64,000 bases of DNA from a virus. The notes beneath the pieces were generated by a model that was not told where the DNA came from, did not search any database, and was given only the letters and a program-made list of their open reading frames with translations. Both the position numbers and the translations under genes were made by a program. Of this stretch, positions 2,236 through 20,163 are shown in pieces (positions within the stretch are counted from its first letter, which is position 1; each line of letters starts with the position of its first letter). The DNA lies in the IMG/VR virus record IMGVR_UViG_3300042475_001686, positions 32,001 to 96,000 of that record; one strand, given 5' to 3'.

Positions 2236-2265
2236 AGTCCTGAGCATGACTACTAAAACTGCTCA
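2236..2265 (+). ncRNA. H-type pseudoknot motif, copy 1
   Basis: AGTC-C-TGAGCA-T-GACT-ACTAAAAC-TGCTCA. Confidence 0.75.
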
Positions 2266-2266
2266 C

Positions 2267-2295
2267 TTGACTTTCTAACTGAAAAATGTTAGACT
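2267..2295 (+). promoter_or_regulatory. SigA-type promoter
   Basis: TTGACT-17-TAGACT with extended TG. Confidence 0.7.
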
Positions 2296-2331
2296 ATAAA
2301 TAACCCAAAACCCATAAGAAAGGAAAACAAA

Positions 2332-2754
2332 ATGGCAAGAAGCCAAAAAGCAATTAGCGTGAAAATCGCTACGACTAAAGTTATCAAGGCTTTAGAAACT
2401 AAGTTAGCACAAATCCAAAAGGATAAGGCTAATCAAGCAACTAACGAGGAGAAGTTCAACAAGGCTCACGAAAAGTGGTCTAAAGATGTTGCTAAACTTT
2501 CTCTCAACGCTATCAACAAGGCAGAGGACTTATCTGCTAATCTAAGATACAATGGCATGGTTCATGTTTCTTTTGATTTGCCTAAAGGTTCTATTGACCT
2601 ACCTGCTCAACCTGAAAAGGATTTTGACACTTATCATGAGTGGCAATACAAAGAAATGGTAGATGAAATTGAGAACGCTATTCGTATTCTCAAGATGACA
2701 GATGAGGAAGTAGTTTCTACCTCAACTTACAACGCTATCGCCCGATACTTGTAA
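2332..2754 (+). CDS. Hypothetical coiled-coil protein
   Basis: 140-aa ORF, AGAAAGGA SD. Confidence 0.8.
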   Translation: MARSQKAISVKIATTKVIKALETKLAQIQKDKANQATNEEKFNKAHEKWSKDVAKLSLNAINKAEDLSANLRYNGMVHVSFDLPKGSIDLPAQPEKDFDTYHEWQYKEMVDEIENAIRILKMTDEEVVSTSTYNAIARYL

Positions 2755-2759
2755 TTCAC

Positions 2760-2787
2760 TCTCCTGAGCATGAGATAAAACTGCTCA
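2760..2787 (+). ncRNA. H-type pseudoknot motif, copy 2
   Basis: TCTC-C-TGAGCA-T-GAGA-TAAAAC-TGCTCA. Confidence 0.75.
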
Positions 2788-2815
2788 CTAACAAAATAGA
2801 CAGAAAGGAAAACAA

Positions 2816-2983
2816 ATGACACTCGGAGGCTACACTTATCAGGTAGGAGATTTATTTACTACCAGCAAGACAGGCGTTACAGGACGAATTGAAAAGTTTG
2901 TTCCACAAAGTAAAAATGTAACTCGTGTAATGCTTCGTTTGGCAAATGGTCAGCAACGATTTGCTATGGTAAAGACTTACTAA
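2816..2983 (+). CDS. 55-aa SH3/KOW-like microprotein (paralog B)
   Basis: MTLGGYTYQVGDLFTTSKTGVTGRIEKF...; AGAAAGGA SD; similar to 2052..2219. Confidence 0.75.
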   Translation: MTLGGYTYQVGDLFTTSKTGVTGRIEKFVPQSKNVTRVMLRLANGQQRFAMVKTY

Positions 2984-3068
2984 TAAAATTGTTACTCTGT
3001 GTTCAAGGCAGACTGCGACACAAAATCGAATTGTGTTGATCTTTCTGCGAAAGTCCCTTGAGTAACCT

Positions 3069-3096
3069 TACTCCTGAGCATGAGTATAAACTGCTC
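3069..3096 (+). ncRNA. H-type pseudoknot motif, copy 3
   Basis: TACTC-C-TGAGCA-T-GAGTA-TAAAC-TGCTC. Confidence 0.75.
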
Positions 3097-3121
3097 CCCT
3101 CTCAAAAAATCGCCTAGGCAA

Positions 3122-3198
3122 TGTGATTTAAAACACAGTCCACTATGTGAGATAGTTTACGTTCTCGATTTGATTTCCCCTCTAAAAAATGTTATGAT
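3122..3198 (+). promoter_or_regulatory. Tandem CRP-like boxes plus SigA-type promoter
   Basis: TGTGA-N6-ACACA (3122-3137), TGTGA-N6-TTACG (3146-3161), TTGATT-17-TATGAT (3170-3198). Confidence 0.55.
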
Positions 3199-3224
3199 TA
3201 TATTATCTAAGAAAGGATAAATAA

Positions 3225-3488
3225 ATGATTAGCACCGCAATAGCAATACAAATGGCAACGCAGGACGCAGTTCATGACGAGAGTGTTATGGATTTGGCTT
3301 CTGCTCTTTATCATCACAGAAATGAAATGAGCGACGAGGACTTTGCTAAAGCAATGTTTATGTATTCTGCTCATCTATCAGCAATGACCGCTACTTTAGT
3401 TACTCATGCCTGCTTGACTGAAAGCCAACTAAATGATATGCTTGAAACAATAAAGGAAATGGATTCCATGGGAAAGGATATTGAATAA
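3225..3488 (+). CDS. Hypothetical protein
   Basis: ORF with AGAAAGGA SD. Confidence 0.75.
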   Translation: MISTAIAIQMATQDAVHDESVMDLASALYHHRNEMSDEDFAKAMFMYSAHLSAMTATLVTHACLTESQLNDMLETIKEMDSMGKDIE

Positions 3489-3928
3489 TGGAAACAACAG
3501 AAACCGTAGTACCCGAACACTACAACTCCAATCAACTCGTAACTTATAAGGTTATTGAGAATGGTGCCGCTACATATCCAACCGTAAAGGTTGTGGACCT
3601 TGAGTGGGACCTGTATCAGAATCGTTCTAATGCAGCCAGTCTGTCTCAATACATTAATAAAGTAAATCAGTTAGAGAATCGTCTTCCTGATTATCTTGAT
3701 ATGGATTCAGAAGATATTGTCTCTGATATCTGCAGCATTTTTGGATTCAACCCAACTAAGGAAATTGAATTCGAGGCAACAGCCACAATTACTGGTCGTG
3801 TACTTGTACCACTTAGTGATTTAGCAAACTTTGATATCGACGACATAGACTTAACCGTTTATGCAGATTCACATTCACACGACGTTGAAGTTGATGTAGA
3901 AGTTGACCACATCTCTCGTGTAGACTAA
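3488..3928 (+). CDS. Hypothetical acidic protein
   Basis: ORF coupled to the upstream stop (TAATG). Confidence 0.75.
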   Translation: METTETVVPEHYNSNQLVTYKVIENGAATYPTVKVVDLEWDLYQNRSNAASLSQYINKVNQLENRLPDYLDMDSEDIVSDICSIFGFNPTKEIEFEATATITGRVLVPLSDLANFDIDDIDLTVYADSHSHDVEVDVEVDHISRVD

Positions 3929-3935
3929 TAAATTT

Positions 3936-4038
3936 CTTGGCCTTCATGAAAGGGGCCAAGATCTGCAAGCATTGCTCCTCTTTCATCCTTTCTTTAGGGA
4001 GCATGCAAGGGACCTGAGCACGTCCACGTAAACTGCTC
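3936..4038 (+). ncRNA. Candidate sRNA: two hairpins (second with an anti-SD loop) plus pseudoknot copy 4
   Basis: CTTGGCC..GGCCAAG; GCATTGCTCC-[loop with TCCTTTCT]-GGAGCATGC; GGAC-C-TGAGCA-C-GTCC-ACGTAAAC-TGCTC (4010-4038). Confidence 0.6.
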
Positions 4039-4112
4039 TTTAAAAATTGCCTAGCCCGCAAAATCTTATTTTGTCAAATTTACGGCGTGTCGGGACATTT
4101 ACGTACCAGGAT

Positions 4113-4141
4113 TTGCAATTGTCAGAGGGTTATGCTAAGAT
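4113..4141 (+). promoter_or_regulatory. SigA-type promoter
   Basis: TTGCAA-17-TAAGAT with extended TG. Confidence 0.65.
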
Positions 4142-4173
4142 TGATAAATCACTTACAGAAAGGACAAAAAATA

Positions 4174-5190
4174 ATGGCGCATGAATTAGAAACGCAAAAT
4201 GGCGTTGCTTCTTTCGCATCATTCCGTGAACCTGCTTGGCATGGTCTTGGCACAGTATTCACGGAAGAAAAAACAACAGCAGAAATGTTATCTGCTGCTA
4301 ATCTAAACAATTGGAATGTTCGTCTTGAGGACGTAAATGTTCCATCTCACTTATCGTCAGATAAATCTTATCAATATGTTGTTCGCACTAACCCTACGGA
4401 TAACACACAGACCGATATTCTCGGTGTTGTTGGTGAGCGTTATCATGTTTTACAGAATGAAGATTTATTCTCATTCGGTGATAATATTCTTGACGGCGGA
4501 GGTCGTTGGGAAACTGCTGGCTCTATTCGTGGAGGTCGTGTTGTATTCGGTTCTCTTGCTCTTGAGCGTGAAACTGTATTAGACCCAAATGGTGTTGCGG
4601 ATAAGGTCAAAACTTATCTTCTCATCAATACATCACATGACGGCTCTATTGCTATTCAAGCAAGTATAACACCTGTTCGTGTTGTATGCGCTAACACTCT
4701 AAACCTTGCTCTTGGCTCTAAGCGTGGGCGTAATGCTATCAAGCAATCTTTCAAGATTCGCCACACACAGACCGCTAATGGTAAAGTTCAAATTGCTCGT
4801 GAGGCTCTTGGTCTTGCTAATGCTTACATGGACGCTTTCGACATCATGGCTAAACAAATGATTGAGAAAGAAATCACAGCGCAACAGTTCAATGATATTG
4901 TTCTCGCTGCGTATCCTAAGCCTGATGAAGAAAAGAAGGGCGCACTTACTCGTTGGACTAACAAGGTTGATGTTATCAATGACATCTACACAGGTGAGTT
5001 CAATGGCATGATTGCTGGCAATGCGTGGGGTGCTTTCAATGCTCTTACTGAACGCCTTGATTGGCATCGTTCTGCTCGTGGTGGAAATACTGAGGCAATG
5101 CTCGCTGCTGCTTCTGGTTTTGACGCAACAATTACAGCAGAAAAAAATCGCTTGCTAACTGTTGTAAAAAATACTTTGCAACTCGCATAG
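4174..5190 (+). CDS. DUF932-family phage/plasmid protein
   Basis: MAHELE..PAWHGLG, ETAGSIRGGRVVF, LLINTSHDGS, TPVRVVCANTL and IRHT motifs; AGAAAGGA SD before ATG 4174. Confidence 0.85.
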   Translation: MAHELETQNGVASFASFREPAWHGLGTVFTEEKTTAEMLSAANLNNWNVRLEDVNVPSHLSSDKSYQYVVRTNPTDNTQTDILGVVGERYHVLQNEDLFSFGDNILDGGGRWETAGSIRGGRVVFGSLALERETVLDPNGVADKVKTYLLINTSHDGSIAIQASITPVRVVCANTLNLALGSKRGRNAIKQSFKIRHTQTANGKVQIAREALGLANAYMDAFDIMAKQMIEKEITAQQFNDIVLAAYPKPDEEKKGALTRWTNKVDVINDIYTGEFNGMIAGNAWGAFNALTERLDWHRSARGGNTEAMLAAASGFDATITAEKNRLLTVVKNTLQLA

Positions 5191-5194
5191 CAAA

Positions 5195-5223
5195 ATTTCC
5201 TGAGCATGAAATAAAACTGCTCA
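5195..5223 (+). ncRNA. H-type pseudoknot motif, copy 5
   Basis: ATTTC-C-TGAGCA-T-GAAAT-AAAAC-TGCTCA, starting 5 nt after a stop codon. Confidence 0.75.
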
Positions 5224-5354
5224 ATTTTTATTTTTCAATTTGCAGATCATAACAAAAAATGCCTAGCAAAACCGACAAATCGGACATTGTATTTTTGTAA
5301 ATATTTTATTACGTAGCACTTGCTTTTTTTGCTGGATTGTGGGATAATAAATAT

Positions 5355-5552
5355 ATGACAATAGACGAACTAACAACCCACATATTTAAAATGCGTAATG
5401 GTTTGGAAGAAGACCTACGCAATCTTGCTGATGAAATGGAAGCACTTGACCCTGCTGCTAAAGACTTTGCTGACCTTGACTTTGAATATAATTTTATTAA
5501 TGGACAGGTAGCGGCATTCAATTACGTACTTACTAAGATAGGCCTACAATGA
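5355..5552 (+). CDS. Hypothetical protein (leaderless)
   Basis: TTGCTT-17-GATAAT (5320-5348), then ATG 6 nt later. Confidence 0.65.
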   Translation: MTIDELTTHIFKMRNGLEEDLRNLADEMEALDPAAKDFADLDFEYNFINGQVAAFNYVLTKIGLQ

Positions 5553-5692
5553 GCAGACTGTACACCATTGATGAATTAGTTACAGAGATCTATGAAGATA
5601 ACCTATCTCATTTTGATGACAGAGACACATCGGATGACTGTGATTGTCAGATCCATACTACCATTAGGACTATTGTGCAATATTGGGAGTAA
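5549..5692 (+). CDS. Small hypothetical protein (47 aa)
   Basis: ATGA overlap with the upstream stop; read manually. Confidence 0.55.
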   Translation: MSRLYTIDELVTEIYEDNLSHFDDRDTSDDCDCQIHTTIRTIVQYWE

Positions 5693-5693
5693 C

Positions 5694-5722
5694 TTGACAT
5701 ACCCCTGACATTTTGCTAAAAT
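5694..5722 (+). promoter_or_regulatory. Strong SigA-type promoter
   Basis: TTGACA-17-TAAAAT with extended TG. Confidence 0.8.
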
Positions 5723-5752
5723 TGCATTACGAACCCAACAGAAAGGACCCCA

Positions 5753-6487
5753 ATGCCCAATTGGTGCTACAACTATCTTGACATATCAGGTGACGAAACC
5801 CTGATTGCAGATATCAAACGACAACTCAACAAACCATTTGTAAAAGACCATGATTCATGGAATGCTACAACTGGACAAATGGAAGTATCTCAAACTACTT
5901 ACCCTAATCCTGTGTTTGCATTTCATAATATATATAATCATAGACAAGACGGTATTTCAGACGAGGAATATATCAAGCAACCTGACCATACCCTGCCTTT
6001 AGAGGAATCTCTTATGTTCAAGGGTAATCATTGGTACGACTGGAATGTTCGCAATTGGGGAACCAAATGGGACGTTGCTGTTCACGATAACGATAAGTAT
6101 CCTGATACTGAGTTATATGAGGAGAGCACTACAGTTCTTGGATATAAATTCAATACCGCTTGGTCTCCACCTATTCAGGCTATAACTAAACTATCAGAAC
6201 AATATCCTACTCTCAACTTCAATCTATCTTATGAAGAAGAAACAGGTTGGGGTGGGGAAGTTACATTGCTTAATGGTTTTATCACTACCGTTGAGGAATA
6301 CGAGAACAAGTGTCGTGACTGTGATGAACTTAACAGTCTTGAGTATTGTGAGAATGACTGCGGTGAGATATGTAATGTATGTCACTATATGGGCGAGGCT
6401 GACCTTGACTGTGTTGCAGAATGTCAGGACCACAAGGTATACTTGGATGAAAAGCATGTACCCGACTATAGATTGGAAAAGGCATAA
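5753..6487 (+). CDS. DUF1281/YubB-like ferredoxin-fold protein with a Cys-rich tail
   Basis: MPNWCYN, WYDWNVRNWGTKWD and FNTAWSPP motifs. Confidence 0.8.
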   Translation: MPNWCYNYLDISGDETLIADIKRQLNKPFVKDHDSWNATTGQMEVSQTTYPNPVFAFHNIYNHRQDGISDEEYIKQPDHTLPLEESLMFKGNHWYDWNVRNWGTKWDVAVHDNDKYPDTELYEESTTVLGYKFNTAWSPPIQAITKLSEQYPTLNFNLSYEEETGWGGEVTLLNGFITTVEEYENKCRDCDELNSLEYCENDCGEICNVCHYMGEADLDCVAECQDHKVYLDEKHVPDYRLEKA

Positions 6488-6771
6488 TGGAAATATCACC
6501 TACCGTGCTCGATGAGCGTTTACAAAAGTTAGTTAATCTTGGTGTTGAAGGTATCGACATCATGCACGGACAACTAAAGAATATGATGTATGAGGCTGAA
6601 GCAGAACTACGCATGGCCCAAGAGGTAGAGGAAGAAAACGACTATTCCGACGCCATGGAATCAATGGAACGTAAATATTGGGAGGGATATACAGACGCAC
6701 TTGCACTTTGCTACGGTTTGACGTATGATATATCTTTCGCTATTAAACAAAAGGAGACAGACAATGCTTAA
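6487..6771 (+). CDS. Hypothetical acidic protein
   Basis: ORF coupled to the upstream gene. Confidence 0.7.
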   Translation: MEISPTVLDERLQKLVNLGVEGIDIMHGQLKNMMYEAEAELRMAQEVEEENDYSDAMESMERKYWEGYTDALALCYGLTYDISFAIKQKETDNA

Positions 6772-7099
6772 GACAGATAAGTTAATACTAATAGGACAGT
6801 TTGCAGTAGACAGTGGTCAAGCCATTATTGGAGACCCATGCTATTTAGATGAGTGGAAAAACTGGGACAGAGAAGTAGATAACTTTGACGACCATGTTAA
6901 TAGAGTTGGTGAGTATGGCTACCTCGGTGCTTGCAACGCTACCATTACCAAGGGCTTTGGTGAATTAGGAAATCAAGCAGTAGCATTTTCTACTGGCTAT
7001 GGTGACGGTTTATATCCAGTTTATGCCCATATTAATGAGGACGGCAGAGTTGGAATGGTTGTAATCGATTTTACAGGAGAGTATCTTGATGATGAATGA
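6764..7099 (+). CDS. DUF4241-like protein
   Basis: VDSGQ..IGDPCY and FSTGYGDGxYPV motifs; AAGGAG SD. Confidence 0.7.
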   Translation: MLKTDKLILIGQFAVDSGQAIIGDPCYLDEWKNWDREVDNFDDHVNRVGEYGYLGACNATITKGFGELGNQAVAFSTGYGDGLYPVYAHINEDGRVGMVVIDFTGEYLDDE

Positions 7100-7170
7100 T
7101 TGGATCCAATTGACATTGCCGCTGGAATTTGATACCATTAACATAAACCCTACTACAGAAAGGACTCCTA

Positions 7171-7530
7171 ATGGGAGCACGTTGTAATTTCGTATTTAAA
7201 CAATCAGAGGACCAGGCTGTAACCCTATACAGTCACTGGGACGAAAGCCATATGTATGAACTGCTGGCAGCAGCGCTTGGACATGCAATGCCACGTATTG
7301 AAATGGGTGATATCCCGTATGCGACTCGAATGGCTATTAGTTATATTATTAAAGAATCTATTCTGGATGAGACAGGATATGGAATTTATGCCATGGACCC
7401 GTCAGACCAAGGATTCTTGGACCATCCAATCACCATTGATTTCACTGACATGACAGTTGGTGAGGGTGAGGCCTGGCATTCCATTAATGATTTTATTAAC
7501 TACAATCTTGTGACGACGGTCACTAAATAA
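7171..7530 (+). CDS. Hypothetical protein
   Basis: ORF with AGAAAGGA SD. Confidence 0.75.
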   Translation: MGARCNFVFKQSEDQAVTLYSHWDESHMYELLAAALGHAMPRIEMGDIPYATRMAISYIIKESILDETGYGIYAMDPSDQGFLDHPITIDFTDMTVGEGEAWHSINDFINYNLVTTVTK

Positions 7531-7609
7531 AGCGAAGACTGGGTACCTTCGCTTGTTGCCAGGGGGGCAGGTTCGACTGTCTACGGACTTGCCTCCCACA
7601 TCTTTTTTT
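7530..7609 (+). terminator. Double hairpin / intrinsic terminator
   Basis: AAGCGAAG/CTTCGCTT stem, then a 14-bp stem with 3 G.U pairs (7562-7597) followed by a T tract. Confidence 0.6.
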
Positions 7610-7632
7610 GATACAATCTATAAGGAGGAACT

Positions 7633-7878
7633 ATGGCTTACAGTGTTAGACGAGCACCACAGAATACCAAAGAAATACAAGTAGCACAGAGAATAGCAAA
7701 GATAATCAACGAAGACATGGGTCTAAACCTTGAGGCTGTTGGCTATCATTTGGTGAGAAACCACCCACCAATTGTATGGCACCGCCTTGAAGTTCTTGCC
7801 TTGACAGCAGGGGAAGAACATGATAAACTTATGTCAGACTATTTAGGAGAACAACATGTCGGTACCCTTTTCGGATAA
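7633..7878 (+). CDS. Hypothetical protein
   Basis: AAGGAGG SD; promoter TTGCCT-17-TACAAT at 7589-7617. Confidence 0.75.
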   Translation: MAYSVRRAPQNTKEIQVAQRIAKIINEDMGLNLEAVGYHLVRNHPPIVWHRLEVLALTAGEEHDKLMSDYLGEQHVGTLFG

Positions 7879-8146
7879 GTGCGGGATTTTAGGTCAGTTC
7901 TGGTTTGAATACAGAGATGACGAAAAACTCAAAGAGTTCATTTCTTATAATGACATTGGATTGCCTTTGTCATGGTTTATTGCTACGGGAGTGGTAACAC
8001 CAAACCCTATGGCAGAGGACTATGTAAATGAAACTTTCAATCTATTCTTGGCAGCATTAGAATTGTCAGAGGAAGAAATTGAGGGTTTGGATAGCCTAAA
8101 CGAAATCCTTGAAATCGTAGAAGCCAAGCAAGAGGACGAAGACTAA
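7856..8146 (+). CDS. Hypothetical acidic protein
   Basis: ORF overlapping the upstream gene end; AGGAG SD. Confidence 0.75.
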   Translation: MSVPFSDKCGILGQFWFEYRDDEKLKEFISYNDIGLPLSWFIATGVVTPNPMAEDYVNETFNLFLAALELSEEEIEGLDSLNEILEIVEAKQEDED

Positions 8147-8475
8147 AAATCTAAGTCCCCCTTGCGGGGCCGCCTAGGTAGATATCTAGAAACCATATCA
8201 AACCACAAACCATAAAACCATTTTACGAATGTATTACGAACCATTGTAAATTTTTCCCAGAAAGATTACGATCCAAACCATATTTTCCCCAAACCATATA
8301 GCATAATATTTTTGGTTTGTCAAACCTTCAAGCCATAGTGTATGATTGTTTGTATAGTACTAGGGGTATTACGATGTCTTTTATATACCCCGCCGTTTTT
8401 TAAAGACATTACGAACGCCGATTTCTTCCCCCCTCCAGAAAGTTTGGCGGGAATAAACGGGAGTATAATAATTAT

Positions 8476-8700
8476 ATGAGTCCCCGTCACTTTTCAAAGA
8501 TGTATCAAAACAAAAGTCAACACAGACATGATCAGCAATCTGACTGGGACTCTTTTACAAAAGACATGACGGTTTTGACTGGTATGTTATACTCAATTGC
8601 AAAGGCACCTCTCAAACCATTCATCCCTGCCTTCTACAAAACGGCGGGAGAAGTTAAAAAAGATTACGAACCTCTCTATAATCCCCCTATAAAGGAATAA
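8476..8700 (+). CDS. Hypothetical protein (leaderless) inside the repeat region
   Basis: TATAAT 8464-8469, ATG 6 nt downstream. Confidence 0.5.
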   Translation: MSPRHFSKMYQNKSQHRHDQQSDWDSFTKDMTVLTGMLYSIAKAPLKPFIPAFYKTAGEVKKDYEPLYNPPIKE

Positions 8701-8806
8701 CAAACCATATTTCCTGGTTTTAAAACATTTTAAAAAGTATTACGAACTTATTGGAATTTTTCCTGGATATTTGGCAATTTTCATCCAAAATAGATTACGA
8801 ACCCTA

Positions 8807-8835
8807 TTGACAAACCATGGTTTTGGATGTATAAT
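8807..8835 (+). promoter_or_regulatory. Perfect consensus promoter with no obvious downstream gene
   Basis: TTGACA-17-TATAAT. Confidence 0.75.
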
Positions 8836-9030
8836 GCCCAAACCTTATATGATGGTTTGACAATATCGGGCATATATGGTATGAGGGTTTGTGAGGTTTG
8901 AAGATATTGGGTGTGAGGGTTTGTGAGGTTTGGGATTACGAACGCCATCTATAAAAACGTTCCATTCACCACTATCCTCCACTTCACTCCACTTTAACCC
9001 TATCCAATAATATAATCAGTAAGATTTATC

Positions 9031-9083
9031 TGTGGATAACTTGTGGATAACTAATGTCAAACCGATGATAACCCTGTGGATAA
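9031..9083 (-). promoter_or_regulatory. Three perfect DnaA boxes (TTATCCACA on the - strand)
   Basis: TGTGGATAA at 9031-9039, 9042-9050 and 9075-9083. Confidence 0.75.
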
Positions 9084-9167
9084 CTCTGTCTTTTCCCATC
9101 CACAAACAGTACAAAAATAGATTATCTTGGTGTCATCTGCATGGGTACTAAATCTATGTAAATGCAT
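9057..9167 (-). CDS. Possible 36-aa leaderless His/Cys microprotein
   Basis: MHLHRF...FCTVCGWEKTELSTGLSSV; TATAAT 6 nt upstream of the ATG. Confidence 0.4.
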   Translation of the reverse strand: MHLHRFSTHADDTKIIYFCTVCGWEKTELSTGLSSV

Positions 9168-9203
9168 TGGGTAATTATAAAACCATTATTTGCGACGGTA
9201 TAT

Positions 9204-9722: not shown

Positions 9723-9844
9723 ACAAACCCTATCTGTAGAGTTTAATTATAACATAGGCCATATTAGAGATATTAACCCCTATTGCTCGTTTAGAGCATA
9801 AGAGGGTTTGTTATTCTATTTTCCGCCGAACTTGAAAGATGATA

Positions 9845-11485: not shown

Positions 11486-11504
11486 GTTTACTTGGGTTCT
11501 ATAA

Positions 11505-13060: not shown

Positions 13061-13217
13061 AAAGATATAGTTTTCCAGATCCAGATAATGAAGGATACGA
13101 AATTGTTATACCAACTGAAGTAATTAAAGATATTACTATCGCATATATGAGAACTACTTTTTATTGGTCTGTAGGCTTATTTAGTTTTCTAATAGGTATT
13201 TTGATTGGAGTAAGTAT

Positions 13218-13382
13218 ATGAGGAAACAAGTTGAATTTACAGAAATGTCTGAAGAGACTGTGATTACATTAAGAACTAACTGTCCTGAAAAATATTTACT
13301 CGTTGATAGAGAGACTGGAAATGTTTTTGTTGCAAGAGAAACTGGAGAATGGGAGTTGATTCGTAATGGATCTATTCGATGA
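13218..13382 (+). CDS. Small hypothetical protein
   Basis: LRTNCPEKYLLVDRETG, similar to the ORF at 12025; GGAG SD. Confidence 0.6.
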   Translation: MRKQVEFTEMSEETVITLRTNCPEKYLLVDRETGNVFVARETGEWELIRNGSIR

Positions 13383-13707
13383 TTCTATTGTAGAGCATAA
13401 GTCTTTGCCACCATTGCGATGGATTGCAAATTTTTCTGGATCTATTGCATCCAGAGGTTTGTTGGAGATTTCTTATATGGAAGATGCAGGCTACACTGGC
13501 TGGAAATATAAACTAAATTGTTTTCTATGGGATAAATTTTGGCCGTTATATGCAAAATATGGTACAACATATAGACTAAGGATGGACTTGTCTGGCAAAG
13601 GTTGGGATGATTACGATGAAGATGGTGTCCCATATTGGGAGAAGTGGGATCTTTGGGATTATGAAGATGAAGAAACAGGCGACGGCTTTAGGATTATTAA
13701 AAAATGA
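13366..13707 (+). CDS. Hypothetical protein
   Basis: 113-aa ORF in the packed + strand operon. Confidence 0.65.
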   Translation: MDLFDDSIVEHKSLPPLRWIANFSGSIASRGLLEISYMEDAGYTGWKYKLNCFLWDKFWPLYAKYGTTYRLRMDLSGKGWDDYDEDGVPYWEKWDLWDYEDEETGDGFRIIKK

Positions 13708-13734
13708 AAACAACAATAAAGGAGAATAAATAAT

Positions 13735-13926
13735 ATGCAATGTGGATGTGGCTTTTCAACTGAATATCCTACATGTAATGGAACTCATAAAGTTATAAAG
13801 AGTGTTAAAGATAAAATTATTTCTGAAATAGAACAAATACCTCTTGAAAGCAACGGAATGCAGTTAAATGCATTAGGCATGAGAATGCTTGTAATTGATA
13901 TTATTAAAAAGGTTAAAGGTGTCTAA
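13735..13926 (+). CDS. CDGSH iron-sulfur domain protein
   Basis: CGCGFSTEYPTCNGTH matches C-x-C-x2-S-x3-P-x-C-D/N-G-S/T-H. Confidence 0.75.
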   Translation: MQCGCGFSTEYPTCNGTHKVIKSVKDKIISEIEQIPLESNGMQLNALGMRMLVIDIIKKVKGV

Positions 13927-14176
13927 CTGGGTCTGTCCCTGTAATGGCTGTAAGAAGGCACAGAAGGTCATTATAGACCAGATCGTAGAGGAGTATAGGT
14001 CTTGTCCTAACCTTGTAGAGTCTGAAGATAAACTGTTTTGTTATACATGGTGGAGACACGATGATTGCGAAAGACTAAGACAGTTATTATATAAGATTAC
14101 GAAGAATGATCGATATACCCTGCCAGAAATAAAACCATCAAATGATACAATTGATATATCAAAAGGATTGGAGTAA
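13895..14176 (+). CDS. Hypothetical Cys-rich protein
   Basis: CPCNGC motif; true start probably the GTG near 13919. Confidence 0.55.
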   Translation: MILLKRLKVSNWVCPCNGCKKAQKVIIDQIVEEYRSCPNLVESEDKLFCYTWWRHDDCERLRQLLYKITKNDRYTLPEIKPSNDTIDISKGLE

Positions 14177-14182
14177 AGTATA

Positions 14183-14842
14183 ATGTCAGCATTTCCAAAA
14201 ATAATTTGGCAAACCCATAAATGGGATTACGAAGATCTTCCAGATATCTACAAAAATACAAGCAAAACCTGGCAAGTTATGAATCCTGATTGGGAATATA
14301 GATATGTTCCTAATAGTCAGATGAGATCATATATTGAAAAACTTAATAACAAACAAATATTAAACTTTTTTGATAGAAATAACTCTCCATTAAATCAAGC
14401 AGATGTGTGGAGAGAGGTAATGGTTTATGAACATGGTGGAATATGGGCAGATATGGATTCTGTATGCTTGTTTCCAATTGATAAGGTTATTGAAAAGAAT
14501 CCAGATAAAGAAATGATTTGTATGTCTCCCGTCGTAAAATTTAGAATGGATGAAGACAATAACTATCAACCAATAGGGGTTGAGGATGGCATACAAAGAC
14601 TTATATCTGGAAAGGAATATGGTTATTGGATATCTAATGCAGCCTTTCTTGGTAAAAAACATAATAAAGTTTCAACTGAAATATTTAAAGCAATGACTGA
14701 GTTTTGGGGATTTAGAGAGTCTTCGTTTATGGGTATGAGAGCAGAACTATATGATAAATATCATGATGATATGTCATTAGATTTAATATGTGCCTTTCAT
14801 GATGGCATGTTTAATGATAGAAATTATCAATCTAAACAATAA
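14183..14842 (+). CDS. Glycosyltransferase, GT32/Och1-like (DxD)
   Basis: PKIIWQT, NPDWEY, ADVWR..VYEHGGIWADMD. Confidence 0.85.
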   Translation: MSAFPKIIWQTHKWDYEDLPDIYKNTSKTWQVMNPDWEYRYVPNSQMRSYIEKLNNKQILNFFDRNNSPLNQADVWREVMVYEHGGIWADMDSVCLFPIDKVIEKNPDKEMICMSPVVKFRMDEDNNYQPIGVEDGIQRLISGKEYGYWISNAAFLGKKHNKVSTEIFKAMTEFWGFRESSFMGMRAELYDKYHDDMSLDLICAFHDGMFNDRNYQSKQ

Positions 14843-14853
14843 TACGGCGGTAC

Positions 14854-14883
14854 TTGACAATCTGCCTTGCCTTGTTCTATAAT
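14854..14883 (+). promoter_or_regulatory. SigA-type promoter
   Basis: TTGACA-18-TATAAT. Confidence 0.7.
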
Positions 14884-14922
14884 TAGTATGTAAGCAAACA
14901 ACTCAAACAGAAAGACTTTACA

Positions 14923-15735
14923 ATGAAAAAACTTATCGCTATTATTTTTGCAATCGTTTTTACTGCAACCCCTATATCTCATGCAGATATTATTCCAGAA
15001 AAACCAATTTTTGACCCTTCGGAACATTGTGTCGTCGACCCCTTAACAGAAACTGTAATTAGCGTTGATAAAAAGTTTGATAATGGAAGTCTTTTAAAAA
15101 AATACGGAATAAAGATTTTATATCCTGGAGTTCAAAAAATACTCACAACAGATATTTTAAAATATCAGCAAGCATTACAAGAATATTCTACTTGGAGTTC
15201 AAACTTTGTAATTCAGTTTAAAATTTTGCTGCCAGAAAATATTTATGAAAATAATCAATGTGGTATGGAAAAATATAGATATGAACAGTCTATTGTAGAG
15301 TACAACACACCAGACGGAACCTGTACTAATTTTTGGTTATATCCAAATAAAACAAAATATAAGTATGAGGTAGTTGGTGAGTCTCACAGACTTATCACAA
15401 CAAGAAAATTGCTAGAGTCTAACTCTAAATTAAATGCTATAGGAGAAAGAGAGTTTTATCCAAATGCTATACTAAAACTTGAGCCTAATAATAAGTTTGA
15501 TAGATATGCTGTCATGGTTTTAATTAACAATAAGCATGTAGGATATGTTCCAGCAGACTTTGCTAAATATATGACACAATATATAAAGTCTACTAAAAAA
15601 AGTCAAATTACTGTCCCAGCCTGTATGGGTTCTGCGGGTGGTTGGCCTCAAGTAAATCTTAATATGGATCCATTTTTAAAATCTATTAAAAAAACAATTA
15701 TTGCATGGAGAGATGGTACAAGAACAGATAGATAA
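14923..15735 (+). CDS. Signal-peptide protein with a C-terminal HIRAN domain
   Basis: MKKLIAIIFAIVFTATPISHA; VVGESH...LKLEPNNKFDRYAVMV..HVGYVP. Confidence 0.7.
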   Translation: MKKLIAIIFAIVFTATPISHADIIPEKPIFDPSEHCVVDPLTETVISVDKKFDNGSLLKKYGIKILYPGVQKILTTDILKYQQALQEYSTWSSNFVIQFKILLPENIYENNQCGMEKYRYEQSIVEYNTPDGTCTNFWLYPNKTKYKYEVVGESHRLITTRKLLESNSKLNAIGEREFYPNAILKLEPNNKFDRYAVMVLINNKHVGYVPADFAKYMTQYIKSTKKSQITVPACMGSAGGWPQVNLNMDPFLKSIKKTIIAWRDGTRTDR

Positions 15736-15744
15736 TAGGTTTAA

Positions 15745-15818
15745 GGAGCAGTAGCCAAGTTGGTCAAGGCCCCGAACTCATAATTCGGTTATCGTAGGTT
15801 CAAGTCCTACCTGCTCTA
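15745..15818 (+). tRNA. tRNA-Met/Ile2 (CAT)
   Basis: Cloverleaf: GGAGCAG/CTGCTCT acceptor, CTCATAA loop, TTCAAGT T loop; no CCA. Confidence 0.9.
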
Positions 15819-15822
15819 CTTT

Positions 15823-15895
15823 GCCCTTGTAGCCCAGTGGTAGAGGCACACGACTTAAAATCGTGCAAGCGTTGGTTCGAATCCAACCAGGGGCA
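15823..15895 (+). tRNA. tRNA-Leu (TAA), short variable arm
   Basis: GCCCTTG/CAGGGGC acceptor, CTTAAAA loop, TTCGAAT. Confidence 0.9.
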
Positions 15896-15899
15896 CTAA

Positions 15900-15972
15900 A
15901 CCTCTGTAACTCAGTGGATAGAGTAGCGGACTTCTAATCCGTTTGTCGTTGGTTCAAATCCAATCAGAGGTG
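15900..15972 (+). tRNA. tRNA-Arg (TCT)
   Basis: ACCTCTG/CAGAGGT acceptor, CTTCTAA loop. Confidence 0.9.
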
Positions 15973-15987
15973 CTACAATAGTAATAT

Positions 15988-16060
15988 TGATCTGTAGTTC
16001 AGTTGGTAGAACACTCGACTGTTAATCGAGATGTCGCAGGATCGAGACCTGCCAGATCAG
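15988..16060 (+). tRNA. tRNA-Asn (GTT), variant T loop
   Basis: TGATCTG/CAGATCA acceptor, CTGTTAA loop, T loop ATCGAGA. Confidence 0.85.
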
Positions 16061-16061
16061 C

Positions 16062-16111
16062 GATACAGACACGGTAGGAATGGGAATAGGAAGACCTATC
16101 GTGTCTGTATC
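16062..16111 (+). other. 17-bp hairpin with a purine-rich loop inside the tRNA cluster
   Basis: GATACAGACACGGTAGG / CCTATCGTGTCTGTATC, one G.U pair. Confidence 0.7.
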
Positions 16112-16115
16112 ATAT

Positions 16116-16189
16116 GGTCCGTTAGTTCAGTTGGTTAGAACGCTACCCTGTCACGGTAGAGGTCGTCGGTTCAAGTCCGATACGGATCG
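16116..16189 (+). tRNA. tRNA-Asp (GTC)
   Basis: GGTCCGT/ACGGATC acceptor, CTGTCAC loop. Confidence 0.9.
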
Positions 16190-16193
16190 CATT

Positions 16194-16265
16194 GGCTCCA
16201 TCGTCTATCGGTTAGGACATCAGATTTTCAATCTGGGAAGACGGGTTCGATTCCCGTTGGGGCTA
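16194..16265 (+). tRNA. tRNA-Glu (TTC)
   Basis: GGCTCCA/TGGGGCT acceptor, TTTTCAA loop, TTCGATT. Confidence 0.9.
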
Positions 16266-16308
16266 CGAGTTTGATATAATGGAATAACTACTAGTAGAAG
16301 GAAATGTA

Positions 16309-18393
16309 ATGTCAGAAGCAAAGTGCCCATTTACGGGTAACAGTTTAAATAATGAAGGAACATATAATAAAGATTGGTGGCCAAACCAATTAGACTTGTC
16401 TCCTTTAAGAAAGAATTCATCTAAGTCAGATCCAATGGGAGAAGACTTTGATTATGCTGAAGAGTTTAATAGTTTAGATCTTGATGCAGTCAAGAAGGAT
16501 ATTGATACACTTCTAACTACCTCGCAAGATTGGTGGCCTGCTGATTACGGCAACTATGGACCACTATTCATTCGCATGGCATGGCATAGCGCAGGAACAT
16601 ATAGAACAACTGATGGTCGTGGTGGTGCTGGAGAAGGTCTACATAGATTTGCCCCACAAAACTCATGGCCAGATAATGGTAATTTAGATAAGGCTCGTAG
16701 ACTTTTATGGCCTATCAAACAAAAATATGGAAAGAAGATTTCATGGGCAGACCTCATGATTCTTGCTGGTAATGTTGCTCTTGAAAACATGGGCTTTAAA
16801 ACTTTCGGTTTTGGTGGAGGTCGTGTAGATGTTTGGGAAGCAGACGATACATATTGGGGTAGCGAAAAGGAATGGCTTGCAGACAACCGTTATAGCGGTG
16901 ATCGTGAGTTAGAGAATCCTCTTGCTGCTGTACAAATGGGTTTGATTTATGTCAACCCTGAAGGACCAAACGGTAATCCAGATCCATTGTTATCTGCACG
17001 AGATATCCGTGAGACATTCGCAAGAATGGCAATGAATGATGAAGAGACCGTTGCTCTTATTGCTGGTGGACATGCATTCGGTAAAGCACATGGTGCTGGA
17101 GATCCCAAGAATGTTGGACCAGAACCAGAAGGCGCATCTATTGAAGAGCAGGGCCTTGGCTGGAAGAATTCATTTGGTAAGGGTAATGCAGAAGATACCA
17201 TTACAAGTGGTATTGAAGGTGCATGGACTCCTACACCAACTAAGTGGGATAACTCCTACTTAAAGATTCTATTTAAGTATGATTGGAAGCAGGTAAAGTC
17301 TCCTGCTGGTGCGACACAATGGATTCCTACAGATGAATCTGCTGTTAATTTAGTACCAGATGCACATGTTGAAGGAAAGTTTCATGCTCCAGTGATGACA
17401 ACAGCAGATTTGGCTCTCAAGTTTGATCCAGAATACGAAAAGATTTCAAGAAGATTCTTAGAAGACTTTGACTATTTCTCAGATCAATTTGCTCGTGCTT
17501 GGTTTAAACTAACACACAGAGATATGGGTCCTGTTGCTCGTTATCTTGGCAAAGAAGTTCCTACAGAAGAACTAATTTGGCAAGATCCAGTACCAAGCAA
17601 TGTTAATATGAATATTGATGTAGAGTCTATCAAGAAGGCTATTAAGTCTTCTGGTATACCACTATATTATTTCGTATATACTGCGTGGTCTTCTGCATCT
17701 ACTTTCCGTAAAACAGATAAGCGTGGTGGAGCAAATGGTGCACGTATTCGCTTGGAACCTCAAATAAGTTGGGACTCCAACAATAAAGAAGTTATCTCCA
17801 CTGTAATTAATTATTTAGAAACATTGCAGAAGGAATACTCAGCATCATTAGCAGACTTAATTGTTCTTGCTGGATGCGCTGCTATCGAAAAGGTATCTGA
17901 AGAAAAGGTTGTAGTACCATTTACACCTGGAAGAACAGATGCAACACAAGAACAAACAGATGTGGAATCATTTAGTGTTCTTGAACCGATTGCAGATGGC
18001 TTTAAGAATTATTTAAAAGATGGAGTTATAACTCCTTCAGAAGTTCTTTTAGTTGAAAAGGCAAATATGCTAAACCTAACACCAGTAGAGATGGTTGTTC
18101 TATTGAGTGGAATGAGAACATTAATGACAAACAGACTAAGCAATGGTTATTTGATCAGTTTGTTATCTGGACAAATTACCTGGAAACAAACATCTATCAA
18201 TAATTTTGAAGGATATGTTGGTGGTGATCTTATAGGTAACGCAAGTCGTGTTGATCTTATTTTCGGATCTAATTCAGAACTTCGTGCTATTGCAGAAGTC
18301 TATGCTTCTGACGATGCAGAACAAAAGTTTATGGATGATTTTGCTCAGGCATGGAATAAGGTAATGATGCTTGATAGATTTGATGTAAGATAG
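16309..18393 (+). CDS. katG: Catalase-peroxidase
   Basis: [48 protein letters not shown]; own extended -10 (16272-16280) and AGAAGGA SD. Confidence 0.97.
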
Positions 18394-18401
18394 TAGGGGT
18401 T

Positions 18402-18473
18402 GCCTCCTTAACTCAGGGGTAGAGTACCCGCCTTGTAAGCGGGTTGTCGTAGGTTCAAATCCTACAGGAGGCT
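18402..18473 (+). tRNA. tRNA-Thr (TGT)
   Basis: GCCTCCT/AGGAGGC acceptor, CTTGTAA loop, TTCAAAT. Confidence 0.9.
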
Positions 18474-18489
18474 CTGATATAATTTGGTT

Positions 18490-18645
18490 ATGGATTTAGA
18501 AAAAGAAATTAAAGATATATTATTTAATATTGGTAAAGAAATTCAGATCCATAAATTAGTTGATGGTAATCTTATTATAGAAATAGATTATGATAAGTAT
18601 ACTATTGAAATGATGGAACTAATGAAAAAGTATTTATCTAATTAG
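18490..18645 (+). CDS. Small hypothetical protein (leaderless, 51 aa)
   Basis: TGATATAAT, then ATG 6 nt later. Confidence 0.55.
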   Translation: MDLEKEIKDILFNIGKEIQIHKLVDGNLIIEIDYDKYTIEMMELMKKYLSN

Positions 18646-18784
18646 ACTTATTCTTTTTGCTGTACTCGCCATATTTACCAAGTACTGCTTTGACTGTTCC
18701 ATCTTTTCTTAGACGAACAATATTTCCATCTTTAATTTGTATTGGATTAAATTTATCGCTTCTTTTATACTTGCCAGAAGACAT
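18638..18784 (-). CDS. Small basic hypothetical protein (48 aa)
   Basis: MSSGKYKRSDKFNPIQIKDGNIVRLRKDG...; overlaps the end of the upstream - strand gene. Confidence 0.5.
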   Translation of the reverse strand: MSSGKYKRSDKFNPIQIKDGNIVRLRKDGTVKAVLGKYGEYSKKNKSN

Positions 18785-19913
18785 TGCCACTACCACGCTT
18801 TCTATTACTTTGTTTTTGAATAGGATTAAGTATATCTGAAAATACTTTTTTATCTTTTTCAGAGTTTACTATTCTCCTTGACCAAGAATAGCCAGCATCC
18901 CCACCCCATGCTAACCACATAATGTACCCATTAGAAGGATTAGATTGATTTGCCCAATCTTTACCCTTTTTATCTACCTCGTGACGAGAAAAATAAGAAT
19001 ACATTCTTTTAACTGTGCTTAGTGATAATGTTTCTCCTCGTGCTAATTGACCTGCACGAGTCCAACCTACTGATGTACCTGCACCTTTTGCTTTACCTTG
19101 TTCTTTAAATCTAATTGCTTTACGTGCTGCTGCACGAGCACCTGCTGGCGGAGAATATCCCTCAGCCTTCGATACCGAATCTGTTTCATAAACAACAGTA
19201 TCATCATCTTCCCAAAGATCATCAGCCTTTTCAGCAGGAACACAGTTAGGAACTGGTCTTCCATTTGCTCCTGGTTTCATACCACGCTGTACATAGCCAT
19301 CCCAACATGGTGCCTGTTTGTTTACATTTGCACAACAATCTGATTTCATTTCACCAGATTGACATTGTGGGCATTGATCACATGTTACATCTAATTCTTT
19401 GCACATAGGGCAACCGCAGCCTTCGTATGCTTTTTTAACATCATCTTCTTCATCGTCTTCTTCATCATCATTTGAAGAGTTGCCAGAAATTGACTTATCC
19501 ATTTCATCATCTGACATCGTATCTGGCAGAATCATTACATCTGCTGCTTTTGCACCAACGAAGTATTCCGTCTCTTCTAATTCGCCCTCTTCCATTTCAA
19601 ACAGTTGAATTAAAATAGCAGGCTCTTCTGCACTTGCTTCAAGAGCATATTCAGATCCTGGAGTTCCAAGCATTCCCTCTGTCATAACGTGAACAACACG
19701 ACCAACATACATTTCTTCTTCATGTGGAGCCATAACCATATCGCCTTCTTTAACCATTGCCTTGCCTATATTGCCCTCAGAACGGTTTATAGCGTAAATC
19801 TGTGCTGCAGCCTCAGAACGAGTCTTATGGCAGCCCATAACCTCTCCTGTGTCCTTTAAAGCGGGGTATCCAGAACAACCATTGGACCCTTTAGCACCTA
19901 TACGATATGGCAT
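18765..19913 (-). CDS. Modular phage protein, putative head-associated
   Basis: Short modules typical of phage head proteins (GCH.T...A..Q; PCWDGY..GMK..VPNCVP; RAGQLA.GE.LS..TVKRM.SYFSRH..WGGD). Confidence 0.6.
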   Translation of the reverse strand: MPYRIGAKGSNGCSGYPALKDTGEVMGCHKTRSEAAAQIYAINRSEGNIGKAMVKEGDMVMAPHEEEMYVGRVVHVMTEGMLGTPGSEYALEASAEEPAILIQLFEMEEGELEETEYFVGAKAADVMILPDTMSDDEMDKSISGNSSNDDEEDDEEDDVKKAYEGCGCPMCKELDVTCDQCPQCQSGEMKSDCCANVNKQAPCWDGYVQRGMKPGANGRPVPNCVPAEKADDLWEDDDTVVYETDSVSKAEGYSPPAGARAAARKAIRFKEQGKAKGAGTSVGWTRAGQLARGETLSLSTVKRMYSYFSRHEVDKKGKDWANQSNPSNGYIMWLAWGGDAGYSWSRRIVNSEKDKKVFSDILNPIQKQSNRKRGSGNVFWQV

Positions 19914-19951
19914 AATAAATAGTATACCATATTTTATGGTAAAATTAAGGC

Positions 19952-20131
19952 ATGAATCAACAACTAACTTCAGAACAGCAAGCAGAGATTATCGCCAATC
20001 AGATAATTCAGGCTACAAAAAATAGTATTATTAATAGACTACAGCCAGCATTTAACAAACTTGCTGAAGGTCATCATCATTTTGATCAGGCTCTTGCTGA
20101 CGCTATCATTACTGACATTAAAAACGCATAA
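19952..20131 (+). CDS. Small hypothetical protein (leaderless, 59 aa)
   Basis: TGGTAAAAT, then ATG 6 nt later. Confidence 0.55.
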   Translation: MNQQLTSEQQAEIIANQIIQATKNSIINRLQPAFNKLAEGHHHFDQALADAIITDIKNA

Positions 20132-20136
20132 TAAAA

Positions 20137-20163
20137 GAGCAGTTTCTCCACATGCTCAGGTGG
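20137..20163 (-). ncRNA. H-type pseudoknot motif, copy 6
   Basis: Minus strand CCAC-C-TGAGCA-T-GTGG-AGAAAC-TGCTC, 3' of the Hsp20 gene. Confidence 0.75.

Follow-up and report, generated by a model that had tools for sequence, protein, structure and literature searches.

A covarying RNA pseudoknot at gene ends in phages and mobile elements of many bacterial phyla, possibly a message-end marker and nuclease roadblock

Structures that stop 3' exonucleases at the 3' ends of messages or between cistrons, and that give polycistronic RNAs segmental lifetimes, are known from the repetitive extragenic palindromic (REP) elements and from the hairpins at the RNase III sites of phage T7. These stabilisers are hairpins; we know of no conserved pseudoknot that acts as a 3' stabiliser in bacterial or phage mRNAs, and Xrn1 is to our knowledge absent from bacteria. 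Here we describe a compact, luteovirus-like RNA pseudoknot, referred to below as the knot, for which the same job is proposed. It was found in six copies in a 64,000-nucleotide (nt) stretch of phage DNA (the window; positions 32,001 to 96,000 of IMG/VR record IMGVR_UViG_3300042475_001686), and the 117,492-base record, which is rated complete and represents a phage recurrent in lake-water metagenomes, carries no copy beyond these six. The knot is an H-type pseudoknot with two covarying helices. Its six copies belong to a large uncatalogued family of mobile genetic elements' pseudoknots, and it belongs to the gene upstream of it, with which it travels when cassettes are shuffled.

Several described RNAs resemble the knot in outline. 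The preQ1-I aptamer is likewise small and of the H type; its P1 varies, its loop is conserved, and its 3' tail, rich in A, pairs back to that loop. However, the second stem (S2) of the knot is longer, and the knot lies after genes and not in the leaders of queuosine genes. The preQ1-I model (RF00522) was rejected, as it gave no match at gathering scores in the window, nor at E <= 10 on 3.2 kb and two 71-nt pieces of it, and no queuosine family appears in the list of the 25 commonest Pfam families for 70 proteins encoded downstream of knots (31 families matched overall). The coremin motif of plant and other RNA viruses, class xrRNA-C of the exoribonuclease-resistant RNAs (xrRNAs), contains AAAC-U in its spacer, like the knot. 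For coremin and its Watson-Crick variant (xrRNA-WCC), the parts of PMC10321173 dealing with them describe a short hairpin and a spacer of about 10 nt that pairs back to the loop, again as in the knot. For coremin, the same parts give a loop of 4 or 6 nt (YGAD or YGNNAD) in the first hairpin (hp1), an S2 of 3 base pairs (bp) or of non-canonical pairs, and a required second hairpin (hp2) directly past the spacer, and a mechanical roadblock in 3' untranslated regions is proposed (PMC10321173). In contrast, the loop of the knot is 8 nt long and its S2 has 5-6 Watson-Crick pairs; membership in either class was rejected on the loop size and on the absence of hp2, the 30 nt downstream of the knot being less structured than the control.

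The -1 frameshift pseudoknots of luteoviruses and enamoviruses, such as that of beet western yellows virus (BWYV), match the knot in length (~28 nt), in their short first stem (S1) and in a first loop (L1) of 1-2 nt over S2, features that are in part covered by PMC10321173. A single junction nucleotide, an A-rich last loop able to lie in the S1 minor groove and a spacer of at least 5 nt to the codon in the ribosomal A site are shared as well. The codon 5 nt upstream of the knot is, however, a stop codon, the knot occurs in many copies per genome, and it is carried by DNA phages and mobile elements rather than plant RNA viruses. A -1 frameshift or read-through signal was rejected, since no shared slippery motif was found in the 21 nt upstream of the 85 copies that lie at most 8 nt past a stop, and no second frame is present. 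A further parallel is offered by the promoter-early stem-loop (PeSL) cassettes of T4-type phages, in which, according to the part of PMC4122927 concerned with them, a conserved terminator-side RNA structure and an early promoter border small, variable, often orphan genes. At these elements, as at the knot, the edges of indels and shuffling between relatives fall at the element itself. PeSLs are, however, plain stem-loops with lineage-specific sequences, whereas the knot keeps one consensus across unrelated phages and phyla, and a third of its copies leave no room for a promoter; the likeness is one of analogy, not of membership. Class 3 xrRNAs of plant viruses are covered in PMC12397905, where the part devoted to them makes no mention of phages.

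The consensus of the knot is NNNC-CU-RRRYA-H-GNNN-N(1-4)AAAC-UYYYY, followed in 74% of copies by an A that can lengthen S2 to 6 bp. S1 comprises 3-5 bp with a conserved C-G closing pair, L1 is C(U), the 5' strand of the 5-6 bp S2 is purine-rich, one nucleotide forms the junction, and the A-rich third loop (L3) ends in AAAC. Covariation in S1 was analysed in 99 copies that were chosen by sequence pattern alone, with pairing not demanded. This set, like those of 150, 173 and 281 copies used below, was drawn from the matches listed, and all figures from the collection are lower bounds. The alignment is gapless, all aligned copies have the 8-nt loop C-U-RRRYA-H, and no further flank is conserved beyond the consensus in the collected copies. 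Pairs 5-18 and 6-17 are formed in all 99 copies and occur as all four Watson-Crick types, the three inner pairs are formed in 98-99 copies, and the closing pair is C-G in 95, G-C in 2 and U-A in 1, while the outer pairs are formed less often (the fourth in 82 and the fifth in 36 of the 99). The covariation score of S1 was 0.364, compared to 0.089 for shuffled alignments, of which 0 of 500 reached the observed value, and to at most 0.085 when the partners were slid. Among the bare-pattern matches listed from IMG/VR, 127 of 139 have at least three contiguous pairs flanking the loop, where chance would give about 5%, and 100 of the 139 share one common spacing.

Similarly, S2 was analysed in copies chosen by S1 pairing together with CT in L1 and AAAC, so that S2 itself was unconstrained. 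Where S2 departs from the consensus, it is still fully paired in 34 of 50 copies. A 150-row alignment, consisting of all 35 non-consensus copies and the first 115 of the 135 consensus copies, contains two-sided changes at all five core pairs (AU 7, GC 7, AU 4, UA 1 and GC 2); 94% of the S2 cells pair, and the score was reached by 0 of 500 shuffles. Variants include AAGCA/UGCUU, GGACA/UGUCC, AGACA/UGUCU, GAACA/UGUUC, GGGCG/CGCCC and GAGUA/UACUC. The same alignment holds 13 UG pairs at one position and 8 GU pairs at another, which on the opposite strand would become A-C mismatches, and the fold is therefore strand-specific. Moreover, S2 variants of different kinds coexist within single contigs (L053, L091), which together with the G-U pairs excludes a palindrome in duplex DNA as the target of a single protein. 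The compact H-type RNA pseudoknot that a first-pass annotation of the window had proposed is thus borne out by covariation of both helices in the 99- and 150-copy alignments. An alignment made by a sequence-only model clipped the 3' halves of variants and was not used for the S2 counts; nor was a MAFFT alignment of the six window copies, which was gapped inside the 3' half of S1.

Both helices are weak when taken in isolation, with predicted hairpin energies in the six window copies of -0.8 to -5.2 kcal/mol for S1 and -4.5 to -5.4 kcal/mol for S2, and a stable knot would therefore lean on stacking and on contacts between loops and grooves. The strict sequence conservation may stem from base triples, with the C/U of L1 in the S2 major groove and AAAC in the S1 minor groove; alternatively, it may reflect a partner molecule. 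AAAC is present in every match outside the window, but the search patterns and the model required or rewarded it, and the invariance of AAAC and of the loop is partly by construction because the collecting patterns fix those letters.

The family is widespread. The bare pattern was found in at least 120 IMG/VR contigs and, in a scan of one genome per prokaryote species, in at least 119 bacterial or archaeal genome contigs; S1 reaches at least 3 bp in 103 of the 123 prokaryote matches listed. The record titles among the matches listed name Patescibacteria, Chloroflexota, Bacillota, Actinomycetota, Desulfobacterota, Acidobacteriota, Bacteroidota, Verrucomicrobiota, Spirochaetota and Pseudomonadota, together with two Methanobrevibacter bins. 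Many of these contigs are metagenome bins, in which mis-binned phage contigs are possible, and a few matches (e.g. three Pseudomonas contigs) resemble chance matches in coding sequence. The genes upstream of the knot in prokaryote contigs are mostly mobile-element cargo (DUF7249, DUF3768, DUF932, RadC, SSB, VG15, YjcQ). The earlier label of a phage RNA system is too narrow, as integrated or mobile elements of many bacterial phyla carry the knot too. This spread over many bacterial phyla and Methanobrevibacter fits a self-contained structure and not the site of a host-specific protein. The absence of a family name was confirmed: Rfam 15 gave no match at gathering scores in the whole window and only chance matches at E <= 10 in 2150-5350 and two 71-nt pieces (greA leader at E 0.49, C0465 and Pinc), and full-text literature searches found no description of this motif.

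Among cultured phages, blastn with a 37-nt query returned 34 weak records, and cyanophage S-RIM4 has one typical copy, 9 nt past a stop. Megablast of positions 1900-5400 against cultured phages gave no match, and no cultured phage was found that carries the motif and for which end-mapping has been published. In Escherichia phage flopper (MN850594.1; L246:1501-1526), a motif-like match with an S1 of only 2 bp lies in a 1.2-kb unannotated, structured gap with tRNA-like sequence; it is possibly a degenerate copy or a chance match. Knots also occur in tandem without an open reading frame (ORF) between them, namely three within 175 nt (L071:7401-7575), of which the third has 4 extra nt inserted at its junction, and a pair separated by 21 nt (L201:4179-4250).

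The position of the knot relative to genes follows rules. With ORFs called mechanically (first start after a stop, minimum 45-50 amino acids (aa)), 153 of 173 copies have a same-strand ORF directly upstream, 103 also have one downstream, and 40 of the 173 are followed by a convergent gene. In viral contigs, the distance from the stop codon to S1 is 0-4 nt in only 2 copies, 5 nt in 24 and 6 nt in 13, then tails off; the corresponding counts in bacterial contigs are 1 copy at 4 nt, 11 at 5 nt and 9 at 6 nt. All three stop codons (TAA, TAG and TGA) precede knots. A second edge is seen on the downstream side, where the next start codon in viral contigs lies less than 20 nt away in 6 copies, exactly 20 nt away in 11 and 20-29 nt away in 38. 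Given the geometry of the helicase of the ribosome, a knot that begins 5 nt past the stop codon lies immediately outside a ribosome whose A site is occupied by that codon. The 5-nt floor and the clearance of about 20 nt thus place the knot as tightly as it can be packed if ribosomes that terminate or initiate are not to melt it. The next start is at most 40 nt downstream of 89 of 281 non-redundant copies, typically in the order knot, about 10 nt of A/U, Shine-Dalgarno (SD) sequence and ATG.

The stretch downstream of the knot is G-poor (2-12% G at +2 to +10) and C/U-rich, and in the viral set the 30 nt downstream are less structured than the control (mean minimum free energy (MFE) -2.1 vs -3.2 kcal/mol; -5 kcal/mol or lower in 12% vs 22%), as is expected of a single-stranded cleavage zone. 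The 30 nt upstream are, family-wide, somewhat more structured than the control (36% vs 22%). A different arrangement is seen in Saccharibacteria (L161:3755-3830, and similarly in L128, L167, L187 and L198), where the knot overlaps a 14-codon mini-ORF (MSSDREQWAGPEHD) whose stop lies inside L3, and the next gene follows about 22 nt past the knot behind a GGGAGG SD. The 5-nt rule is broken here, and the knot could have been put to regulatory use; an integrated element is suggested by a tRNA-Ser gene lying 3 kb from the L161 knot.

The linkage of the knot to the upstream gene became apparent when window positions 1-9000 were compared with 17 related contigs. Within 1900-5400, the right ends of homology blocks fell within 10 nt of the 3' edge of a knot in 13 of 44 cases, where a uniform distribution would give 3%, and left ends did so in 0 of 42. 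The right ends cluster at 5222-5233 in eight relatives and at 2265-2266 in four. The blocks are permuted among the relatives (the order in L043 is C...B-A-D), and the left arm of the window is a row of short units, each with a sigma-70-like promoter, one or two small ORFs and a knot, which are permuted among related phages as well; no canonical terminator was found after these left-arm genes. Since the knot moves with its gene, each gene would form a self-contained cassette. The proteins encoded upstream of 150 viral copies include 19 of DUF932 and 16 of Hsp20, the same families as those preceding copies 5 and 6 of the window, while the downstream proteins are diverse (31 Pfam families among 70), the commonest being an SNase-like nuclease behind Hsp20 (7 of 70). 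The order Hsp20, knot, SNase-like nuclease gene is conserved (L093, L096, L109, L019, L026, L037 and others), and in this group the knot is exactly 20 nt before the nuclease start, separated by the spacer AUUAAAAUUUAAGGAG, and 33-72 nt past the Hsp20 stop.

Of the functions offered in the first-pass annotation, an exonuclease barrier or a processing site fits best, and a folded module that stands by itself at the end of a cistron agrees with every rule of placement. A possible explanation, which we prefer at slightly short of an even chance, is that the knot serves the upstream gene as a message-end marker and nuclease roadblock; on the sequence evidence, the terminator, riboswitch, frameshift, antitoxin and DNA-operator readings fit worse. 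As a cis-acting RNA on the sense strand and part of the mRNA, it would fold by itself into the compact pseudoknot and remain folded while ribosomes terminate at least 5 nt away, a full stop to the gene before it. A read-through transcript would be cut in the G-poor, unstructured stretch just downstream, and 3'-to-5' exoribonucleases entering there, or after termination or cleavage further downstream, would be halted by the knot, leaving the upstream cistron with a defined and protected 3' end. Tandem arrays of knots without ORFs, such as are seen with roadblocks, would suit this reading. In addition, two conserved 10-mers of the knot may supply microhomology for cassette shuffling: homology edges coincide exactly with the knot, which, like the analogy with PeSLs, suggests that the conserved halves serve as recombination joints, a role that may be a by-product. 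That the knot represents a class of roadblock pseudoknots resistant to exoribonucleases or ribosomes, the first in prokaryotes, i.e. a host-independent, triplex-stabilised, 28-nt counterpart of the xrRNAs on portable genes of DNA phages, prophages and mobile elements across bacterial phyla (perhaps archaea), with halves doubling as cassette joints, is conceivable but on balance doubtful.

Several observations weigh against a roadblock. Both helices are short and weak, and nuclease resistance would need tertiary contacts. A pure barrier should not demand the strict CU of L1, the AAAC or an S2 that varies by transitions only, and such strict conservation could instead point to a specific partner. 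The cliffs in the distances to stops and starts are expected in compact genomes for any structure that ribosomes must not melt, the knot of the Hsp20 group looks positioned for the downstream gene, the ORF calls are crude, and the copies were collected with patterns that fix part of the motif. RNA data came from assembled contigs of four metatranscriptome runs (X15-X18), which show neither RNA ends nor a ranking of genes. Genes 2017-2835 and 4240-5058 are represented by contigs from relatives, some of which extend across copy 1; the RNA is therefore not always cut or ended there. Across copy 2, the summed contig depth in X16 goes from 4880 to 588 and then to 14, and no inference was drawn from contig depth or from bins without coverage.

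Among the other readings, it is unlikely that the knot is a transcription termination or pause signal, in which S2, supported by S1 and the triplex, would form behind the polymerase and release or pause it, unaided or together with NusA, NusG or Rho, in place of an intrinsic terminator between close promoters. In its favour, window copies 1, 3, 4 and 5 precede promoter-like sites with no canonical terminator after these genes, convergent gene ends occur at 40 of 173 copies, the downstream stretch is G-poor and C/U-rich, and a U-rich tract directly after the knot is more frequent than in the control (viral 45/165 vs 11/165; bacterial 22/116 vs 9/116). Such a tract is, however, present at only 67 and absent after 214 of the 281 copies, and its rate is alike at tight (18/89), middle (20/72) and operon-end or far (29/120) positions, without enrichment at operon ends. 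Moreover, transcription must continue past the 89 of 281 copies where an SD alone occupies the gap of at most 40 nt to the next start, and metatranscriptome contigs do continue through copy 1. An intrinsic terminator was rejected on these tract and spacing counts, which also disfavour the non-canonical terminator that the first-pass annotation had offered. A specific binding site is similarly improbable. On this reading, a conserved protein, the ribosome or a small ligand would bind the knot as a tag, and translation from one gene to the next would be controlled through it, for example by blocking post-termination sliding or re-initiation of ribosomes, or by repressing or activating the next cistron. 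Conservation exceeds what pairing needs (CU in L1, AAAC, the C-G closing pair in 95/99), and in S2 purines change only to purines and pyrimidines only to pyrimidines. A minimum of exactly 5 nt from the stop, the distance of about 20 nt to the next start, fixed at 20 nt in the Hsp20 group, and the Saccharibacteria mini-ORF with its stop in L3 also speak for a binding site, as does the architecture shared with small ligand-binding pseudoknots of the preQ1-I type. Against it, the downstream genes are unrelated (31 Pfam families among 70 proteins), unlike a riboswitch regulon, and, as they share nothing, neither a riboswitch nor a dedicated translational operator is likely; at 40 of 173 copies, no gene in the same direction follows at all, an S2 of 5-6 bp should form ligand-free, the spread over many phyla argues against a lineage-specific protein, and no Rfam riboswitch model matched the window.

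Less probable still is an RNA processing signal at gene borders, either recognised by an endonuclease (an RNase P-like tRNA mimic, or a site for RNase III, E or Y) or a tiny self-cleaving motif. About a third of the copies are intercistronic, the conserved unpaired nucleotides recall small ribozymes, which are common in phages, and the spread across phyla would follow if the cut were made by a universal enzyme or by the RNA itself; this reading also overlaps with the roadblock, which itself requires a downstream cut. Yet no Rfam ribozyme matched in the window, the knot has no conserved or structured extra domain on either side, and RNA contigs span copy 1 uncut. The pistol ribozyme (RF02679) was rejected on the lack of an Rfam match and of a conserved or structured downstream part, and a tRNA-like or RNase P signal because a 3' ACCA is not enriched (ACC after 24 and ACCA after 12 of the 281 knots, about the expectation from base composition). 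A DNA-level element, be it a palindromic operator (TGAGCA...TGCTCA) or a single-strand DNA recombination site that mobilises cassettes, is very unlikely. TGAGCA and TGCTCA form an inverted repeat, a -35 box directly adjoins copy 1, the homology of relatives stops exactly at the 3' edge of the knot and the cassettes are permuted, but this microhomology-driven shuffling may be a side effect and not the selected function. Different S2 variants coexist in one contig, the G-U variants break the palindrome, the spacer is variable in length and contains a freely covarying stem, and both the strict co-orientation with the upstream gene and the codon-scale distances to stops and starts would be pointless for a DNA site. 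Least probable of all, to the point of being scarcely credible, is an RNA that would neutralise a toxin or a defence nuclease in the manner of a type III antitoxin or a decoy, a possibility also raised in the first-pass annotation. Type III antitoxin RNAs are small pseudoknots as well, and DUF932, DUF3768, RadC and SSB, found upstream of knots, are typical of the early or leading regions of mobile elements. The copies are, however, dispersed after different genes and form no tandem array beside a toxin gene, no ToxN-type family is encoded by any of the ten window ORFs scanned, and no Rfam antitoxin RNA matched in the window; a ToxI-like antitoxin was rejected on the same scan and on the ORF-separated spacing of the copies.

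Small conserved RNA folds that are this widespread yet uncatalogued are rare, and a covariance model of the knot could enter Rfam at once. In the annotation of genomes from uncultured phages, the knot marks where genes end and where cassettes meet. If the roadblock reading is true, it would account for the continued expression of orphan genes after transfer among unrelated phages and hosts, it would extend the xrRNA or roadblock concept from eukaryotic RNA viruses to bacteria, and it would supply a 28-nt host-independent part for stabilising and insulating cistrons in synthetic operons.

Within the window, the six copies listed in Table 1 are unambiguous. The pattern TGAGCA-N(5-14)-AAACTGCTC matched six times, compared to 0 in 100 dinucleotide-preserving shuffles, and all six were recovered at E <= 0.003 by a covariance model based on sequence alone, for which 95 copies from other phages and four from the window (99 in all) served as input, the next match having E = 2. 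The features first read from these copies hold throughout: they lie on both strands at the positions originally given, each on the sense strand 3' of an ORF, with the strand switching together with the Hsp20 gene; S1 differs in every copy and pairs in all; and AAAC is invariant, as is the GAGCA/TGCTC pairing (6/6). An additional hairpin 5' of four copies had also been reported, of which those at copies 3, 4 and 6 are clear in the predicted folds, while that at copy 1 stands only in part, a 5-bp TTCCT/AGGAA helix being visible in the sequence but absent from the MFE fold. Predicted hairpins fill the long stop-to-knot gaps. The copies are 310-1186 nt apart with ORFs between them, apart from one that is 15 kb off.

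Table 1. Coordinates of the pseudoknot copies and neighbouring features in the window
Feature	Position	Strand	Details
Pseudoknot copy 1	2236..2265	+	S1 AGTC/GACT; loop CUGAGCAU; L3 ACUA+AAAC; S2 UGAGCA/UGCUCA; 16 nt past stop of 55-aa ORF 2052-2219; adjoins promoter-like site 2267-2295
Pseudoknot copy 2	2760..2787	+	S1 TCTC/GAGA; 5 nt past stop of 140-aa ORF 2332-2754; intercistronic, 3' end 29 nt ahead of start of ORF 2816-2983
Pseudoknot copy 3	3069..3097	+	S1 TACTC/GAGTA; 85-86 nt past stop of ORF 2816-2983
Pseudoknot copy 4	4010..4038	+	S1 GGAC/GTCC; last base of loop is C; 81 nt past stop of ORF 3488-3928
Pseudoknot copy 5	5195..5223	+	S1 ATTTC/GAAAT; 4-5 nt past stop of DUF932 gene 4174-5190
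Pseudoknot copy 6	20137..20163	-	S1 CCAC/GTGG; 21 nt past stop of Hsp20 gene 20185-20604
Long composite hairpin 5' of copy 3	2991-3066		Predicted fold
Two hairpins 5' of copy 4	about 3935-3961 and 3969-4005		Predicted; fill the 81-nt gap (3935-4007)
Hairpin 5' of copy 6	20180-20165	-	CAGTAT-TGTC-ATACTG
ORFs ending in copies 1-5	2052-2219, 2332-2754, 2816-2983, 3488-3928, 4174-5190	+	The last is DUF932
Hsp20 gene	20185-20604	-	Bears copy 6 at its 3' end
Sigma-70-like promoter	2267-2295	+	TTGACT-17-TAGACT with TG; consensus match only
Similar promoter-like sites	1984-2012, 3170-3198, 5694-5722		Consensus matches only
WhiB-family transcription factor gene	26590-26931	-	

The MFE fold of copy 1 (2233-2274) favours an outer helix, AAAGUC/GACUUU, around the S2 hairpin, which competes with S1 and whose downstream half overlaps the -35 box; because relatives do not keep AAAGUC/GACUUU, this helix was treated as a chance pairing and rejected. 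The second hairpin before copy 4 exposes a pyrimidine loop, TCCTTTCT (3986-3993), that is a candidate anti-Shine-Dalgarno sequence, and in the relative L043 the knot lies 5 nt past the stop of the homologous gene, without those two hairpins. A second repeated box, AAAAWYGCCTAG, is present at 3106-3117, 4043-4054 and 5255-5266, that is 4-33 nt past copies 3, 4 and 5, and with one mismatch at 913-924, after the knot-less ORF 680-913. Each box is followed after about 40-70 nt by a promoter-like TTGC..-17-TGnTAnGAT, and it could be an upstream promoter element or regulator site of the cassettes.

The ORFs 2052-2219, 2332-2754, 2816-2983 and 3488-3928 gave no family match above threshold. The window encodes a WhiB-family protein, and its DUF932 protein is nearest to those of actinophages; an actinobacterial host is therefore likely, judging by these two genes. 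Two genes beyond WhiB lies a gene for an APS-kinase-like P-loop protein (25659-26417, - strand). Elsewhere, a 694-aa protein (16309-18390, + strand) contains two peroxidase-domain stretches and resembles a catalase-peroxidase; its gene lies among seven tRNA genes (15745-16265 and 18402-18473).

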